Assembly: GCF_056746865.1 (NCBI RefSeq)
Contig: NZ_CM163382.1
Length of the DNA stretch: 64,000 bases
Direction: 5' to 3' (one strand)
The first letter of the stretch is position 1; the number at the start of each line of letters is the position of its first letter. Below are positions 6,426 through 28,817 of this stretch, one piece after another. The translations under genes and the position numbers were made by a program. The notes beneath the pieces were generated by a model, which did not search any database, was not told the origin of the DNA, and saw nothing but the letters and a program-made list of their open reading frames with translations.

Positions 6426-7541
6426 ATGAATATTAAAGGTAAACACTATCGTACGGTCTGGGTTTCCGGGGATGGAAAAGCGGTAGAAATCATCGATCAG
6501 ACTAAGTTGCCTTTTAAGTTCGAGGTGGTGGCGCTTACCTCTGCGGAAATGGCCGCTACGGCTATTCAGGATATGTGGGTTCGTGGCGCTCCGCTTATTG
6601 GTGTCGTTGCAGCCTATGGCATCGCGCTGGGAATGAATCACGATGCCAGTGACATGGGTCTGCAGCGTTACTATGACCTTCTTATCAAAACCCGACCAAC
6701 GGCAATTAATCTCAAATGGGCCCTCGACAGGATGATAGACACACTGAAGGATCTCTGTGTATCAGAGCGCAAGGATGTGGCCTGGGCGCTGGCGGCAGAA
6801 ATTGCCGAGGAAGATGTCGCGTTGTGTGAACAAATTGGATTACATGGTGCAGAAGTCATCCGCGAAATAGCCCAGAAAAAACCGGCCGGGAGTGTGGTCA
6901 ATATCCTGACACATTGTAACGCAGGCTGGCTGGCGACTGTAGACTGGGGAACCGCGCTTTCTCCCATCTACAAAGCGCATGAAAACGGAATCCCTGTTCA
7001 CGTCTGGGTGGATGAAACGCGGCCACGTAATCAGGGCGGACTCACGGCATTTGAACTGGGCTCACACGGTATTCCTCACACCCTGATCGCCGACAACGCG
7101 GGTGGCCACCTGATGCAACACGGTGACGTTGATCTCTGCATTGTTGGGACCGATCGAACCACGGCCAGAGGGGATGTCTGTAATAAAATTGGTACCTATC
7201 TTAAGGCGCTGGCGGCCCATGATAACCATGTTCCCTTCTACGTCGCGTTACCTTCTCCCACTATTGACTGGACTATCGAGGACGGAAAAAGCATTCCGAT
7301 TGAGCAACGTGACGGAAAAGAGCAGTCCCATGTCTATGGGATAAACCCTCAGGGAGAATTGAGCTGGGTCAATACCGCCCCTGAAGGAACCCGTTGTGGG
7401 AACTACGCTTTCGACGTCACGCCTGCCCGATACATTACCGGCTTCATTACTGAGCGGGGAGTCTGTGCTGCCAGTAAGTCAGCGCTGGCGGATATGTTTG
7501 CTGACCTGAAGAGTAAAGCACTCCAGGGGGAACAGCATTAA
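6426..7541 (+). CDS. mtnA: S-methyl-5-thioribose-1-phosphate isomerase (MtnA, eIF-2B alpha/beta/delta-like family)
   Basis: 371 aa; 9 nt after mtnK; eIF2B-like fold motifs ([31 protein letters not shown]). Confidence 0.8.
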
Positions 7542-7571
7542 AACAGCGGCCATTGCTATTAAGGATCAGGA

Positions 7572-8213
7572 ATGGAACGGATTAAGTTAGCAGAAAAAAT
7601 CATTTCCACTTGTCGGGAAATGAATGCGTCAGGTCTTAATCAAGGAACATCAGGTAATGTGAGTGCCAGGTATACCGGTGGCATGTTGATTACGCCGAGT
7701 GGGATCGCTTATTCAAAGATGACGCCGGACATGATTGTCTTTGTAGACGATAAGGGAAAACCTGAAGCGGGTAAAATACCATCAAGTGAATGGTTAATTC
7801 ATCTGGCGTGTTATAAAGCCAGACCAGAATTGAATGCTGTCATACATACGCATGCGGTGAATTCCACGGCGGTGGCAATACATAATCATTCAATTCCGGC
7901 CATTCATTATATGGTGGCGGTATCGGGGACGGATCATATTCCCTGTATTCCCTATTATACCTTTGGCAGTCCTGAACTGGCCGACGGTGTATCTAAAGGA
8001 ATCAGAGAAAGTAAGTCCTTGCTGATGCAGCACCACGGTATGCTGGCCATGGACGTCACGCTGGAAAAGACGTTGTGGCTGGCGGGTGAAACCGAGACGC
8101 TGGCTGATTTATACATCAAATGTGGCGGATTACATCACGATGTTCCCGTGCTGTCTGAAGCCGAAATGACCATCGTCCTTGAAAAATTCAAAACGTATGG
8201 TTTGAAAGCGTAA
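7572..8213 (+). CDS. class II aldolase (FucA-like); candidate 5-methylthioribulose-1-P / 5-deoxyribulose-1-P aldolase
   Basis: 213 aa, very similar in length and sequence to L-fuculose-phosphate aldolase (MER.KLA..II.TC.EM...GLNQGTSGNVS..., HTH.. metal-binding histidines); directly follows mtnK-mtnA. Confidence 0.75.
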   Translation: MERIKLAEKIISTCREMNASGLNQGTSGNVSARYTGGMLITPSGIAYSKMTPDMIVFVDDKGKPEAGKIPSSEWLIHLACYKARPELNAVIHTHAVNSTAVAIHNHSIPAIHYMVAVSGTDHIPCIPYYTFGSPELADGVSKGIRESKSLLMQHHGMLAMDVTLEKTLWLAGETETLADLYIKCGGLHHDVPVLSEAEMTIVLEKFKTYGLKA

Positions 8214-8316
8214 TTACAGCTTTATTTTAATTAATAACATATGACAGCCATTCGCAGAATGGCTGCTATTCCCTCTGTCCACAACGATTGATTATAACTA
8301 CCACAAGGAGTTATTT

Positions 8317-21898: not shown

Positions 21899-22036
21899 TT
21901 ATAGCACCACTTTGTTGCAGGACGCTCCCTCTTCATTACGTCCTGCACGTGGATACCCCAGCATCTCCATCAGCGGATCTTAGAATGTAATGGCGCGTGG
22001 CAGGTCGTTGGTTCCCAGCATAATGTAAGAAAACAT
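21899..22036 (-). pseudogene. VOC/glyoxalase-like gene remnant with premature TAA
   Basis: ATG (rc) at 22036 gives MFSYIMLGTNDLPRAITF then TAA (plus-strand TTA 21980-21982) where a Tyr codon is expected (..ITF-Y-DPLMEMLGYP..); the frame ends after about 26 more codons, far short of a VOC domain. Confidence 0.35.
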
Positions 22037-22073
22037 CGGATCTCCTGAATAGATTCAGAGGGAGTATAGATAA

Positions 22074-22334
22074 TCAGCTCAAATCACTCTCCGCTTTATG
22101 AGCCCAGGCTGGCATTGCCGTCAGATAACGTTTTGCACGCTTATGTGCTTCCTCCGGGCCGACTTTTTGCCAGGAATCAAGGAAGCTGGCTAAACCTGAT
22201 ACCGCTTCTTCCCAGGGTTTGAGATTGCCGTTGCTGTCGCTGCATTACGCACAATATTGATCACTGGCACTGTGTGCATCTGGTGCCGACATCGGCATTC
22301 CGCAAGCCTGACAGAACTGTTCATGTTGTGACAT
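22074..22334 (-). pseudogene. zinc-ribbon protein gene (yjhY-like) inactivated by an in-frame TAA
   Basis: ATG (rc) at 22334: MSQHEQFCQACGMPMSAPDAHSASDQYCA then TAA (plus-strand TTA 22245-22247), then CSDSNGNLKPWEE.. in the same frame to TGA at 22074; the stop sits where the second CxxC would read C-A-Y-C. Gene name is from memory only. Confidence 0.5.
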
Positions 22335-24077: not shown

Positions 24078-24453
24078 ACTGAAGAACCTATTTAATCATC
24101 ATGTGCAAAACGTGCAAACACACCGCGGTGTCCGCATTCGATTTCGGCGCATTGATAATCAGTCCGGCCTGAAAAGGTCGGGGAACTGATTATCGGATGA
24201 TTACATTCTCCAGCATCAAAGCCTCGGGTTGAGTTGAAAGGTATTTACGGAGCGAATATTAACACGTAGTTATAGGAGGGATATGTTTCAGTAGAAAAAG
24301 TGTGATGTACTTTGGAAATTGAATGCCAACCCATTTACTGGAAAAGGCAGATGACACTGACGAATGCATGTTGAAGTACGCCTGAAATGGCCTCATCGGC
24401 TTTTCCCTTCGGGAGATTATTCTCCTTTTGTTAAATCCAGAACATAAATATGC

Positions 24454-24699
24454 TCACCCATCTTCGATGCTTGAAAAATTGAAGCCAATCCTGATAAGTA
24501 ATTTTTTTGAAAGGGTATTTTCCGGATTCACACCGGCTTTGATGAGTGAAAAACCGTTCTCTTTTATTCAGTCAATCGTGGCGGTAATTGCTTCAATTGC
24601 ATATCCCTGGCGAGCATAAGCGGGACTGATGGTATAGCCGAGCCAAAACACATCGCATTGCTGACGTAAATAGATATCACCAATCAAAACCTGCGTCAT
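24454..24699 (-). pseudogene. GNAT acetyltransferase remnant, frameshifted
   Basis: Minus-strand reading gives MTQVLIGDIYLRQQCDVFWLGYTISPAYARQGYAIEAITATID-stop (24568-24699), and in another frame ..ENGFSLIKAGVNPENTLSKKLLIRIGFNFSSIEDG-stop (about 24454-24567), i.e. GNAT motif A and the C-terminal motif separated by a frameshift/stop. Confidence 0.45.
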
Positions 24700-24862
24700 T
24701 TGTTGACAATGGCCAATTGAATATCGCGAGCAAGTGTAAGAACTCCCAGCAAGACCCTGTAAATAATTCTGTGTAACTGCCCACGATTAAAGGTGGCCGC
24801 TCAGGCGGCCACCGTATTCGATAATAAATGGGTCTGGAAAAAGTGCAGCATCTGGCAGCGTA

Positions 24863-26055
24863 ATGCAGGTAGCCCAGTTCAACTCTCACTACCAGTATGA
24901 TCCCAAGTTCGAGCGCGGAATGTATCTGTATGAGCATCGTCGCTGTTTCAATAACATCATCGACTACTGTAACTCACTTTGCTATCACGGTAAGTTGCAG
25001 CCTAAAAGAGGGATGGAAAAAGGACGATTTTCCCCGCAATGGGATATTTACATATTGATGGTAGAGGCATGAAGCCAAATGGAGGGAGCCGTCATAACCC
25101 TCTTGAAGCTGAAACAATAGCAGCATGGCTGGTGGCACATAAGGATGATATAGAGCGCCATTACGGGGAACCACTGTACAAAGTTGTTGGTGTTGTGACG
25201 CCATTTTCGGCGCAGGTTAATGCTATCAAAATGTCATTGCGTAAGCTGGAAATTAATGGCAAAGACGAGCAGGGTTTACTGACAGTGGGGACTGTGCACT
25301 CCTTGCAGGGGGCGGAAAGGGCGATTGTTCTCTTTTCTCCTGTCTACTCAAAACATGAAGATGGCAGGTTTCTTGATAGCAACAGCACTATCCTCAATGT
25401 TGCTGTCTCACGCGCTAAAGATAGTTTTCTGGTATTTGGCGATATGGACCTTATCGAGATGCAGCCCGCATTTTCGCCGCGAGGGTTATTGGCAAAATAT
25501 CTCTTTTCTTCAGATAATAATGCGTTGCAATTTGAGTTTCAGAAACGACAGGATTTAATTTCCGCACATACACAAATTTCAACGCTGCATGGTGTGGAGC
25601 AGCATGATGAATTTTTGAACAAGACTCTTGCCGGAGCTCAAAAGAAAATAACGATTATTTCCCCTTGGTTATCCTGGCAAAAAGTGGAGCAAACGGGATT
25701 TCTGGCATCAATGGCTTTGGCCCGTTCCCGGGGCATTGATATTACCGTGGTGACGGATAAAAACTGCAATATAGCGCATGTCGATGATGATAAGCGTCAG
25801 GAGAAACAACATCTGCTGAATGATGCTGTTGAAAAGCTCAATAAGATGGGTATCGCTACGAAATTGGTTAATCGTGTTCACAGCAAAATTGTGATTGAGG
25901 ATGAAGAACTGCTGTGTGTCGGATCTTTTAACTGGTTCAGTGCTACACGGGAAGATAAGTATCAACGATACGATACGTCTTTGGTGTACCGTGGTGAAGG
26001 CGTAAAAAATGAAATAAAGGCAATATATGGTAGTCTGGATCAACGTCAGCTTTAA
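24863..26055 (+). pseudogene. yjhR: truncated superfamily-1 helicase / PLD-family nuclease gene (yjhR); a 338-aa ORF 25039..26055 remains
   Basis: ORF 25039-26055 carries helicase C-terminal motifs ([23 protein letters not shown]) and a C-terminal HKD motif ([19 protein letters not shown]); upstream 24863-25072 encodes more of the same protein in a different frame; no N-terminal ATPase domain is present. Confidence 0.7.
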
Positions 26056-26173
26056 ATGTGATGAGCCGTTCATGATACAGGAGTAGTAAAGGGCATATTT
26101 TACCAATGTTAAGGCGACTTTCCGTTTTATTGCGAGTCGCCTTTCCTGATTATAAATCTTATTGTTTACCTAA

Positions 26174-27368
<1,195 letters not shown>

Positions 27369-27836
27369 CTAATCATTTTCCTTTGCATAATGCGCCTGGG
27401 ATTAATGGCGGGTGCTTTTAGGAATGAAAGAAAATGCAAGCAATAATATAATAATGGCCTAATTTCTTTGAACATCATTAAGCATATCATCATCGTCTAT
27501 TTGCCAGAATCCGTCGACTTATAATCGCCAGAACGGCATATCAGGACGGTGCTGCGAACGCTGTGGCCCAAAACGTTCCAGTAAACTGTGTAGATGTTCG
27601 TAGATTTCCGAGCCATAATCGAAAAGGCGCGGATGTCTATTAAGGCATCCGGCTAATCTGTAAGCAATAACAACGGTTTATGCGGTGCGCGTTTTTCACC
27701 CTTGTGCCAGATTATTATATTGGCAATTGCCTGCTGTTCGAGCCCGCAAGTGAAGAGATATTACCTTGATCTCATTTGTTTTTTGTTGTCTACTCTGAGA
27801 ACGAACAAGGACATCCCCCATGAATAAACTCCCCGC

Positions 27837-28817
27837 TCACCTTTCGCGCCAAAACTGCAAAATTGCTTCTACAAATCTGTCAGAAATAATCCCCCGACGG
27901 GCTGCAGTGCTGAAATGACTGCTTCGCAGTGCCGTCGTCCAGTTCTCCGGTGACCGGTACGCTGAACCGTAATATCCCGTGCTTAAATCGTCCGGGTCTT
28001 CATCAGGCGCGTTCGTCAGTCCTCTTTCACCTTGTTGCTGGAAGTCGACGAAAATAATATTGGCTAAAACATTATTTTGATAATTGCCATAAATAGCTTC
28101 ATACGAATGCGGGAAATTTTCTTTCCAGTACCAGGTGGTATCGCCGCAAAACCACGGCGCGTCAGTAATATTATTAAGCTGAGAATGGTATTGTTTTAGA
28201 TCCCTACGAAAGGCTTCAACCATATGATTAAAGTGTTGAGGGTGTGACGCGTAGTCACTGGTCATTAAGTCAAATTCGCCTTGCATCCAGCATGCGCCGA
28301 GGAATTTGTTCTGCGGATTTTTTGCCAGTGCGGCTCGCGTTCTGCTGACTAAATCCTGGTACAGCGGAGTATCCGTTCCCCAACGACAAGCATCATGGCT
28401 GGCTCCGTGCCGTTCTGAATATGTCCCTTCGCTGCCCGCGGTAAAAGCCGATCCGCCACGGCAACACGGAACGATAAGAATCCCTGCATTATCAGGAATG
28501 AAGGGCAGTAATTTCCGTGCAATATGCAGTGCCTGGCCAACGGTGCCGTACTGTGTTTGATGATTCGTTGCCAGAGGATGGTGATAACCCTGCATATCCT
28601 GAACATCGTGTGGGCAGTGAGTCAGTGGAATAATGTCGTTAAAGTGACATGGCGGGCCTCCGGGATGCGTATGCGCAAATCTCGCTAATTGTTTAATTCT
28701 GGGATGAGGCGCATCTTCCCTGTCCGGTAATGGCAGTCCTTCGCCATACGCCATGGCATTAGACTGACCAGCAACGGTAAGAACATAGTAATAATCGGGC
28801 GATATTATTGCGTTCAT
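27837..28817 (-). CDS. nanS: sialate (9-O-acetyl-N-acetylneuraminate) esterase
   Basis: 326 aa from ATG at 28817 (MNAIISPDYYYVL..); SGNH/sialate O-acetylesterase-like. Confidence 0.85.
   Translation of the reverse strand: MNAIISPDYYYVLTVAGQSNAMAYGEGLPLPDREDAPHPRIKQLARFAHTHPGGPPCHFNDIIPLTHCPHDVQDMQGYHHPLATNHQTQYGTVGQALHIARKLLPFIPDNAGILIVPCCRGGSAFTAGSEGTYSERHGASHDACRWGTDTPLYQDLVSRTRAALAKNPQNKFLGACWMQGEFDLMTSDYASHPQHFNHMVEAFRRDLKQYHSQLNNITDAPWFCGDTTWYWKENFPHSYEAIYGNYQNNVLANIIFVDFQQQGERGLTNAPDEDPDDLSTGYYGSAYRSPENWTTALRSSHFSTAARRGIISDRFVEAILQFWRER

Follow-up and report, generated by a model that had tools for sequence, protein, structure and literature searches.

We analysed a 64-kb window (64,000 nucleotides of contig NZ_CM163382.1) of a K-12-like E. 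coli chromosome, and concentrated on positions 24078-26173, which lie where the leuX tRNA island has its right end. This segment is flanked by yjhP, yjhQ and topAI/yjhX on one side, and by IS5, nanS and nanM on the other. Most of it, 24420-26055, is very probably a composite of two non-functional gene remnants bridged by a scrap of insertion sequence. The loss of function of both remnants is deduced from their sequence. The features of the region are the following:

24078..24248, minus strand: 5' upstream region of topAI (171 nt), with the 8-codon uORF toiL.
24420..24752, minus strand: GNAT acetyltransferase pseudogene (yjhZ-type), residues 48-158 of 158 (tblastn, homologs, translation, Pfam Acetyltransf_3).
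24753..24828, no strand given: terminal 76 bp of an IS256-family (ISEc39-like) element (similarity to IS ends in strains P19_598 and 4973).
24829..25023, plus strand: upstream segment of mkoC/yjhR, residues ~764-828 of 1171 (DNA alignment to intact genes, tblastn).
25018..26055, plus strand: main segment of mkoC/yjhR, residues 827-1171 (Pfam, PADLOC MkoC, tblastn).
26174..27368, plus strand: IS5, 1195 bp (comparison with the uninserted site of strain 2FA, PGAP annotation).
27471..27736, minus strand: frameshifted remnant of an HNH restriction endonuclease that binds phosphorothioated DNA, residues 8-96 of 290 (PGAP, and tblastn using the intact N1420 protein as query).

The first 171 nt of the segment are not part of the decayed genes and belong to the functional topAI-yjhQ-yjhP operon. 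The topAI upstream region has been described as 171 nt long, with the start of toiL 139 nt upstream of topAI (Baniulyte & Wade, bioRxiv 10.1101/682021), and the positions in the window agree with this description. There, toiL has its ATG at 24216, its stop codon ends at 24190, and it reads ATG CTG GAG AAT GTA ATC ATC CGA TAA on the minus strand.

The adjacent GNAT gene is a RimJ/RimL-like (Acetyltransf_3) acetyltransferase that lacks residues 1-47, and with them the N-terminal strands of the complete fold of ~158 aa. Using the intact GNAT of P0125 as a tblastn query, residues 65-146 matched at 24702-24457 and, with a second frame, residues 48-158 matched at 24752-24420. A 43-aa minus-strand open reading frame within the remnant (24568-24699) is recognized by Pfam Acetyltransf_3 (E=7.3e-4). 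The corresponding remnant of strain ARL09/232 allowed us to reconstruct an unframeshifted version of 99 aa, which is 85-92% identical to intact 158-aa GNATs; such homologs occur in Enterobacter, Klebsiella, Citrobacter and Salmonella. Alignment to ARL09/232 locates a 1-bp deletion between 24699 and 24700 and an in-frame TGA at 24568-24570, where ARL09/232 has TGG. The frame change in the tblastn matches and our reading of the sequence further suggest a 1-bp insertion near 24456, which would put the last 12 codons out of frame. The initial annotation described GNAT motifs split across frames at 24454-24699. This is correct for the whole remnant, but the narrower interval is in a single frame, interrupted by the TGA. 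In other genera, the intact GNAT lies directly upstream of toiL-topAI-yjhQ-yjhP, which makes it an old neighbour of the operon. Intact copies were seen only in these other genera and on one metagenome scaffold of 693 bp.

On the other side of the insertion sequence fragment, the plus strand carries two open reading frames, at 24863-25072 (69 aa) and 25039-26055 (338 aa, with an ATG start). They had been read initially as pieces of one large protein, separated by a frameshift, with helicase motifs, a C-terminal HKD motif and no N-terminal ATPase domain, and each of these points holds. The 338-aa frame matches the Pfam families AAA_12 (E=6.7e-19, residues 15-136), PLDc_2 (2.9e-11) and PLDc (7.4e-07). 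This places the second RecA-like helicase domain at ~25081-25446 and the PLD domain at ~25621-25938. The HKD motif HxK(x)4D(x)6GSxN is canonical (25879-25932), and the presence of an HKD nuclease domain is thus not in doubt. A tblastn search with an intact homologous protein of 1171 aa (see below) gave two matches, of residues 759-832 at 24815-25036 (frame 2) and of residues 827-1171 at 25018-26052 (frame 1, 96% identity). The change of frame is caused by the loss of one G: where strain ARL09/232 and the intact genes have GGG, the window has GG (25022-25023). The counterpart in ARL09/232 reads as 413 codons without a frameshift. No residues before 759 were found by the same search anywhere in the 64-kb window.

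The identity of the protein was given by the defence-system profiles of PADLOC. When the frameshift is removed, the remnant matches the Mokosh type II profile MkoC (PDLC03924) with E=7.3e-180, over profile positions 739-1135 only, of 1136. The 338-aa frame as it stands in the window matches positions 812-1135 only (E=3.8e-139). The profiles of Mokosh type I gave much weaker matches in the same search (E ~1e-18 for MkoA and ~1e-14 for MkoB). At the DNA level, alignment with two intact alleles shows that homology to mkoC begins at TGGGTCTGG, position 24829 of the window, which corresponds to codon ~764. By these alignments, yjhR is the 3' 35% of the Mokosh type II gene mkoC, residues ~764-1171 of 1171. 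Given this breakpoint and the lack of earlier residues in the window, the remnant is devoid of the N-terminal region and of the first RecA-like domain, which holds the Walker A and DEAG motifs.

Several lines of evidence showed that the complete gene exists at this very site in other strains, in agreement with the early suggestion that yjhR is what remains, at the 3' end, of a large defence gene for a helicase-PLD nuclease. A protein search revealed E. coli homologs with 97% identity that reach further towards the N-terminus and run off the ends of their contigs near nanS, nanM, nanC and fimB. Our survey of 5426 complete E. coli genomes, queried with the extra 5' sequence, identified 13 carriers of an intact allele. 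In these 13 genomes the gene is an uninterrupted frame of 3516 bp at the same locus, beside nanS-nanM-nanC-fimB; WP_338387444.1 of strain 2017-02-2CC and WP_033555724.1 of strain N1420 are two of the intact products. It encodes a product of 1171 aa (132.35 kDa), 92-97% identical to the remnant across the shared part, with the Pfam domains AAA_11, AAA_12 and PLDc_2. This protein has a Walker A motif (GPPGTGKT) at residue 294, the sequence LLIVDEAGQV at 693-702 (DEAG at ~701), and the HKD motif at 1114. It matches the PADLOC MkoC profile from end to end (E=0, positions 1-1135 of 1136). The 338-aa frame is therefore not a complete stand-alone protein.

Mokosh type II was described as a single gene encoding a COG1112 (Upf1-like) RNA helicase followed by a PLD nuclease; the verified MkoC, from E. 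coli 5-366-08_S1_C1, has 1171 aa and protects against phage, and defence is lost when either the ATP-binding site or the PLD active site is mutated (Millman et al. 2022, bioRxiv 10.1101/2022.05.11.491447). According to a later preprint, type II Mokosh is monomeric, has a mass of 132 kDa and acts with narrow specificity for phages. The intact ortholog resembles the verified protein in length and in the order of its parts (N-terminal region, Upf1-like SF1 helicase, C-terminal PLD domain), and the two are colinear, with 66% identity across the 398 N-terminal residues available from the supplement of Millman et al. By contrast, the copy in the window consists of the last 35% of the gene, is frameshifted, and has lost the ATP-binding motifs required for defence. 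It matches the MkoC profile and keeps the HKD motif, but it is not a single uninterrupted gene of ~1100-1200 aa and has neither Walker A nor DExx. It is thus a relic rather than a working member of the family. The loss of the N-terminal region and first RecA-like domain, together with the 1-bp frameshift, would leave the yjhR of the window unable to act as a Mokosh protein.

The relation to other systems is more distant. Mokosh type I consists of two genes, MkoA (helicase-kinase) and MkoB (PLD). Its homology with the remnant is at the level of domains, those of the Upf1-like helicase and of the HKD nuclease, but it includes a kinase domain, and the match of the remnant to MkoC is far stronger than to MkoA or MkoB. 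The piRNA proteins MOV10L1 and PLD6/Zucchini likewise show homology at the level of these domains. Solved structures provide only weak sequence matches, to DNA2, SMUBP-2 and a 5'-3' RNA helicase (E ~1e-4). These matches, and the PGAP name of the gene, which is simply "helicase YjhR", might be taken to indicate that the ancestor was a housekeeping DNA2/Upf1-like helicase-nuclease of DNA repair or RNA decay, and not an immune gene. We find this scarcely credible. The intact protein matches the Mokosh type II profile over its full length and is 66% identical to a phage-protective protein over the N-terminal residues that can be compared. Furthermore, an intact gene in only 13 of 5426 genomes is an accessory gene, and it sits in the leuX island by type IV/HNH restriction genes, restriction-modification genes or a P4-like satellite bearing a DRT. 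The ancestor of yjhR is best regarded as the defence gene mkoC.

What truncated this gene? The remains of GNAT and mkoC are joined by 76 bp (24753-24828) that comprise a 25-bp inverted repeat and the adjoining inner sequence of an IS256-family (ISEc39-like) end. This fragment is 88% identical to the end of the IS256-family element of strain P19_598, with inverted repeat TGACCCTGTAAATAATTCTGTGTAA; its identity to an IS256 fragment of strain 4973 is 97.4%. The outer end of the element points towards the GNAT remnant, which it meets at GNAT codon 47/48, and the inner break abuts mkoC codon ~764. A single T is shared at the break between IS256 and mkoC. Bases 24752 and 24829 can be assigned to either side, because both partners share them. 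The window contains no further IS256-family pieces; a single end is present, rather than two repeats plus a transposase. A fragment that has an IS terminus at one border and a position internal to the IS at the other is characteristic of an insertion with a subsequent deletion, and we infer such a history here.

The starting state would have been a leuX tRNA island whose far end, next to nanS, carried mkoC and a phosphorothioate-dependent HNH restriction enzyme. An IS256-family element would then have inserted into the GNAT gene at codon 47/48. A subsequent deletion, from 76 bp inside the element to mkoC codon ~764, would have removed the rest of the element, the 5' end of GNAT, the intervening DNA and 2.3 kb of mkoC. 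The same IS end delimits both remnants. The remnant would then have spread to about one third of E. coli, with continuing decay by point mutations and IS insertions, and IS5 would have inserted 118 bp downstream in the lineage of the window. That the IS insertion preceded the deletion is read only from the anatomy of the junction, as our genomes include no intermediate. The arrangement expected before the deletion, with both GNAT and mkoC intact, was found in no E. coli genome; the 13 genomes with intact mkoC have different upstream neighbours, either a P4-like satellite or restriction-modification genes. A displaced 5' part of mkoC, as could result from an IS-mediated inversion, was also considered and, since tblastn gave no match, it was ruled out within the 64-kb window.

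The IS5 copy, which begins at 26174, 118 bp past the yjhR stop codon as initially noted, is so close that it could be suspected of having caused the truncation. We can reject this explanation outright. IS5 lies downstream of an intact stop codon, leaves the yjhR reading frame untouched, and is bordered by a clean CTAA target duplication (26170-26173 and 27369-27372, by comparison with the uninserted site of strain 2FA). The missing part of mkoC is the 5' end, 1.3 kb away from IS5 and bounded by the IS256-family fragment. Moreover, the identical truncation is present in genomes lacking this IS5 copy, among which are K-12 derivatives such as 2FA. The GNAT-IS256-mkoC junction was found in 1281 of the 5426 genomes, as against 84 with the exact IS5 insertion, with no laboratory K-12 strain among the 25 listed. 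Hence, IS5 arrived later than the truncation and is unrelated to it, in line with the initial annotation, where the truncation was placed before or independently of IS5.

The truncated allele is much more frequent in the population than the intact one (about 1700 genomes versus 13). The 3' part of yjhR is present in 1729 of the 5426 genomes, with at least 99% identity in 1712 of them. Such conservation, and the large protein clusters to which the products belong (1335 members for the 338-aa form and 695 for the 397-aa form read without the frameshift), might suggest that the fragment is a functional stand-alone RecA2-like and PLD nuclease, for example a dimerising HKD nuclease like Nuc/Zucchini. 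Some residual activity of the shortened protein is conceivable, since the 338-aa frame is open, starts with an ATG, and keeps an intact HxK(x)4D(x)6GSxN motif and the whole of AAA_12. Yet the homology to intact MkoC continues upstream of this ATG in another frame (residues 764-832), Walker A and Walker B are absent from the fragment, and the high identity among copies suits a recent common origin rather than constraint. In other strains, the fragment has been repeatedly and independently damaged by later insertions of ISEc52, ISEc23 and IS1A, and by deletions sparing only the PLD part. Promoter-like consensus sites for the 338-aa frame are at chance level (4, against 4.5 expected in shuffled sequence).

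The pattern of substitutions also bears on this question. Between the two groups of intact alleles, dN/dS is 0.10. The changes specific to the allele of the window are 6 non-synonymous and 2 synonymous, which is near the neutral site ratio of 3.6:1 and differs from 26:60 (Fisher p=0.017), with the caveat that there are only 8 such changes. These small numbers point to relaxed selection on truncated yjhR. Overall, we regard a functional stand-alone nuclease as very unlikely. It is also very unlikely that the RecA2-PLD fragment is expressed and acts as a free HKD nuclease, or modulates incoming Mokosh systems, for instance as a dominant-negative partner; if this were true, a defence-gene relic would have been repurposed. 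The reading that we favour is that the GNAT and yjhR remnants are ordinary pseudogenes, which are already on record in databases and the literature.

The decay of mkoC is not an isolated case in this island. The HNH remnant at 27471-27736 is a second dead defence gene. Its counterpart is intact in strain N1420, where a second HNH gene follows, and the intact protein matches the PADLOC profiles HNH and mREase_IV. Two types of cargo fill the interval between leuX and mkoC in genomes with intact mkoC, namely a P4-like satellite that bears a DRT (UG5-nitrilase) system in some, and methyltransferase and type IIG-like genes in others. The flank of the leuX island that is proximal to nanS is thus a site of defence genes that has largely decayed in most E. 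coli.

These results agree with existing annotation, and some of the observations were already available. PGAP labels yjhR "frameshifted; incomplete; missing N-terminus", and the yjhR/yjhZ pseudogenes are those of E. coli K-12, as over 24078-26173 the window and laboratory K-12 derivatives (2FA, for example) have 100% identity. The order topAI, GNAT remnant, yjhR, nanS is shared with K-12, the additional downstream IS5 being that of the strain of the window. The link between YjhR and Mokosh was also known: K-12 YjhR was presented as a Mokosh protein that combines MkoA and MkoB in a fusion, and its model was compared with MOV10L1 and PLD6 (Cury et al. 2022, bioRxiv 10.1101/2022.12.12.520048). 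Our analysis adds the precise position of the breakpoint, the IS256 fragment, the counts of intact and truncated alleles, and the observation that "K-12 YjhR" represents no more than the C-terminal third of MkoC. With respect to the initial annotation, the additions are the name of the system, Mokosh type II, the IS256-family breakpoint, and the loss of the N-terminal part of GNAT at the same IS end.

The finding leaves general understanding unchanged, and its importance is chiefly one of annotation: yjhR of K-12 receives a precise family, Mokosh type II, and a breakpoint. It also calls for caution in structural work that uses K-12 YjhR as a fused Mokosh protein, which is a fragment without the N-terminal region and the first RecA-like domain. 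Since it is truncated, the comparison of Cury et al. could align only the second RecA-like and the PLD domains. At its nanS-proximal end, the leuX island emerges as a graveyard of defence genes, with mkoC and a phosphorothioate-dependent HNH enzyme. Finally, intact 1171-aa alleles of mkoC survive in a few natural isolates, and are directly testable.

The first 171 bp of the decayed-gene interval 24078-26173 are functional regulatory sequence rather than gene debris. They form the long upstream region of topAI and contain toiL, an antibiotic-sensing uORF (10.1101/682021). toiL precedes the start codon of topAI by exactly 139 nt, in agreement with the published distance (10.1101/682021).

24078-24248, minus strand: topAI long 5' upstream region
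24216-24190, minus strand: toiL uORF, 8 codons (MLENVIIR), within that region

The terminal fragment of an IS256-family element (24753-24828), between the GNAT and mkoC remnants, has near-identical solo copies at other sites in many E. coli genomes. One sits directly downstream of djlA, with 60 bp aligning at about 90% identity, and a second is near yafV in strain 4973 (97% identity). These scattered solo fragments suggest old and widespread relics of a single IS256-like element.

Two loci from other genomes, solo IS256-family fragment copies: L005 2001-2060; L012 2201-2278

The stretch from the stop codon of yjhR, the 3' remnant of mkoC, to nanS holds three further features. The inverted repeat may be the old mkoC terminator; a terminator scan made no call for it. 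The HNH gene, frameshifted here, is intact in strain N1420 (290 aa), where it adjoins a 216-aa HNH endonuclease gene.

26111-26143, plus strand: 9-bp inverted repeat AAGGCGACT ... AGTCGCCTT with a 15-nt loop, 56 bp past the yjhR stop codon
27471-27736, minus strand: N-terminal remnant, frameshifted, of an HNH restriction endonuclease that binds phosphorothioated DNA, between IS5 and nanS
27820-27918, plus strand: 32-codon ORF MNKLPAHLSRQNCKIASTNLSEIIPRRAAVLK a short way upstream of nanS, corresponding to the small protein annotated as YthB
N1420 locus, 11485-12357 and 12494-13144: the intact HNH counterpart and its neighbour

In strain 2017-02-2CC, the leuX island carries a P4-like satellite with integrase, delta, psu, sid and alpha primase. 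Between its integrase and delta/psu lies a DRT system made of a 961-aa RT_UG5-nitrilase and a 229-aa RTasTM, and an intact yjhR is found just past the alpha gene.

2017-02-2CC locus, 7476-12363: P4-like satellite with DRT system, leuX island

Two more pseudogenes lie beyond yjhP, at positions carried over from where PGAP annotates them in an identical strain; both genes are intact in Enterobacter-like contigs. In these other Enterobacteriaceae (L013-L016) the module reads glyoxalase, intact GNAT (158 aa), topAI, yjhQ, yjhP, Zn-ribbon and VOC.

About 21920-22292, minus strand: VOC/glyoxalase remnant and Zn-ribbon gene with an internal stop
Enterobacter-like contig L014, 7001-10262 and 11906-14477: example of this gene context

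The far side of the module is occupied in one arrangement by a convergently oriented MkoC homolog of 1172 aa that shares 73% identity with E. coli YjhR, and in an alternative arrangement by a BREX system (L013). It is therefore a variable defence slot that travels with the topAI module.
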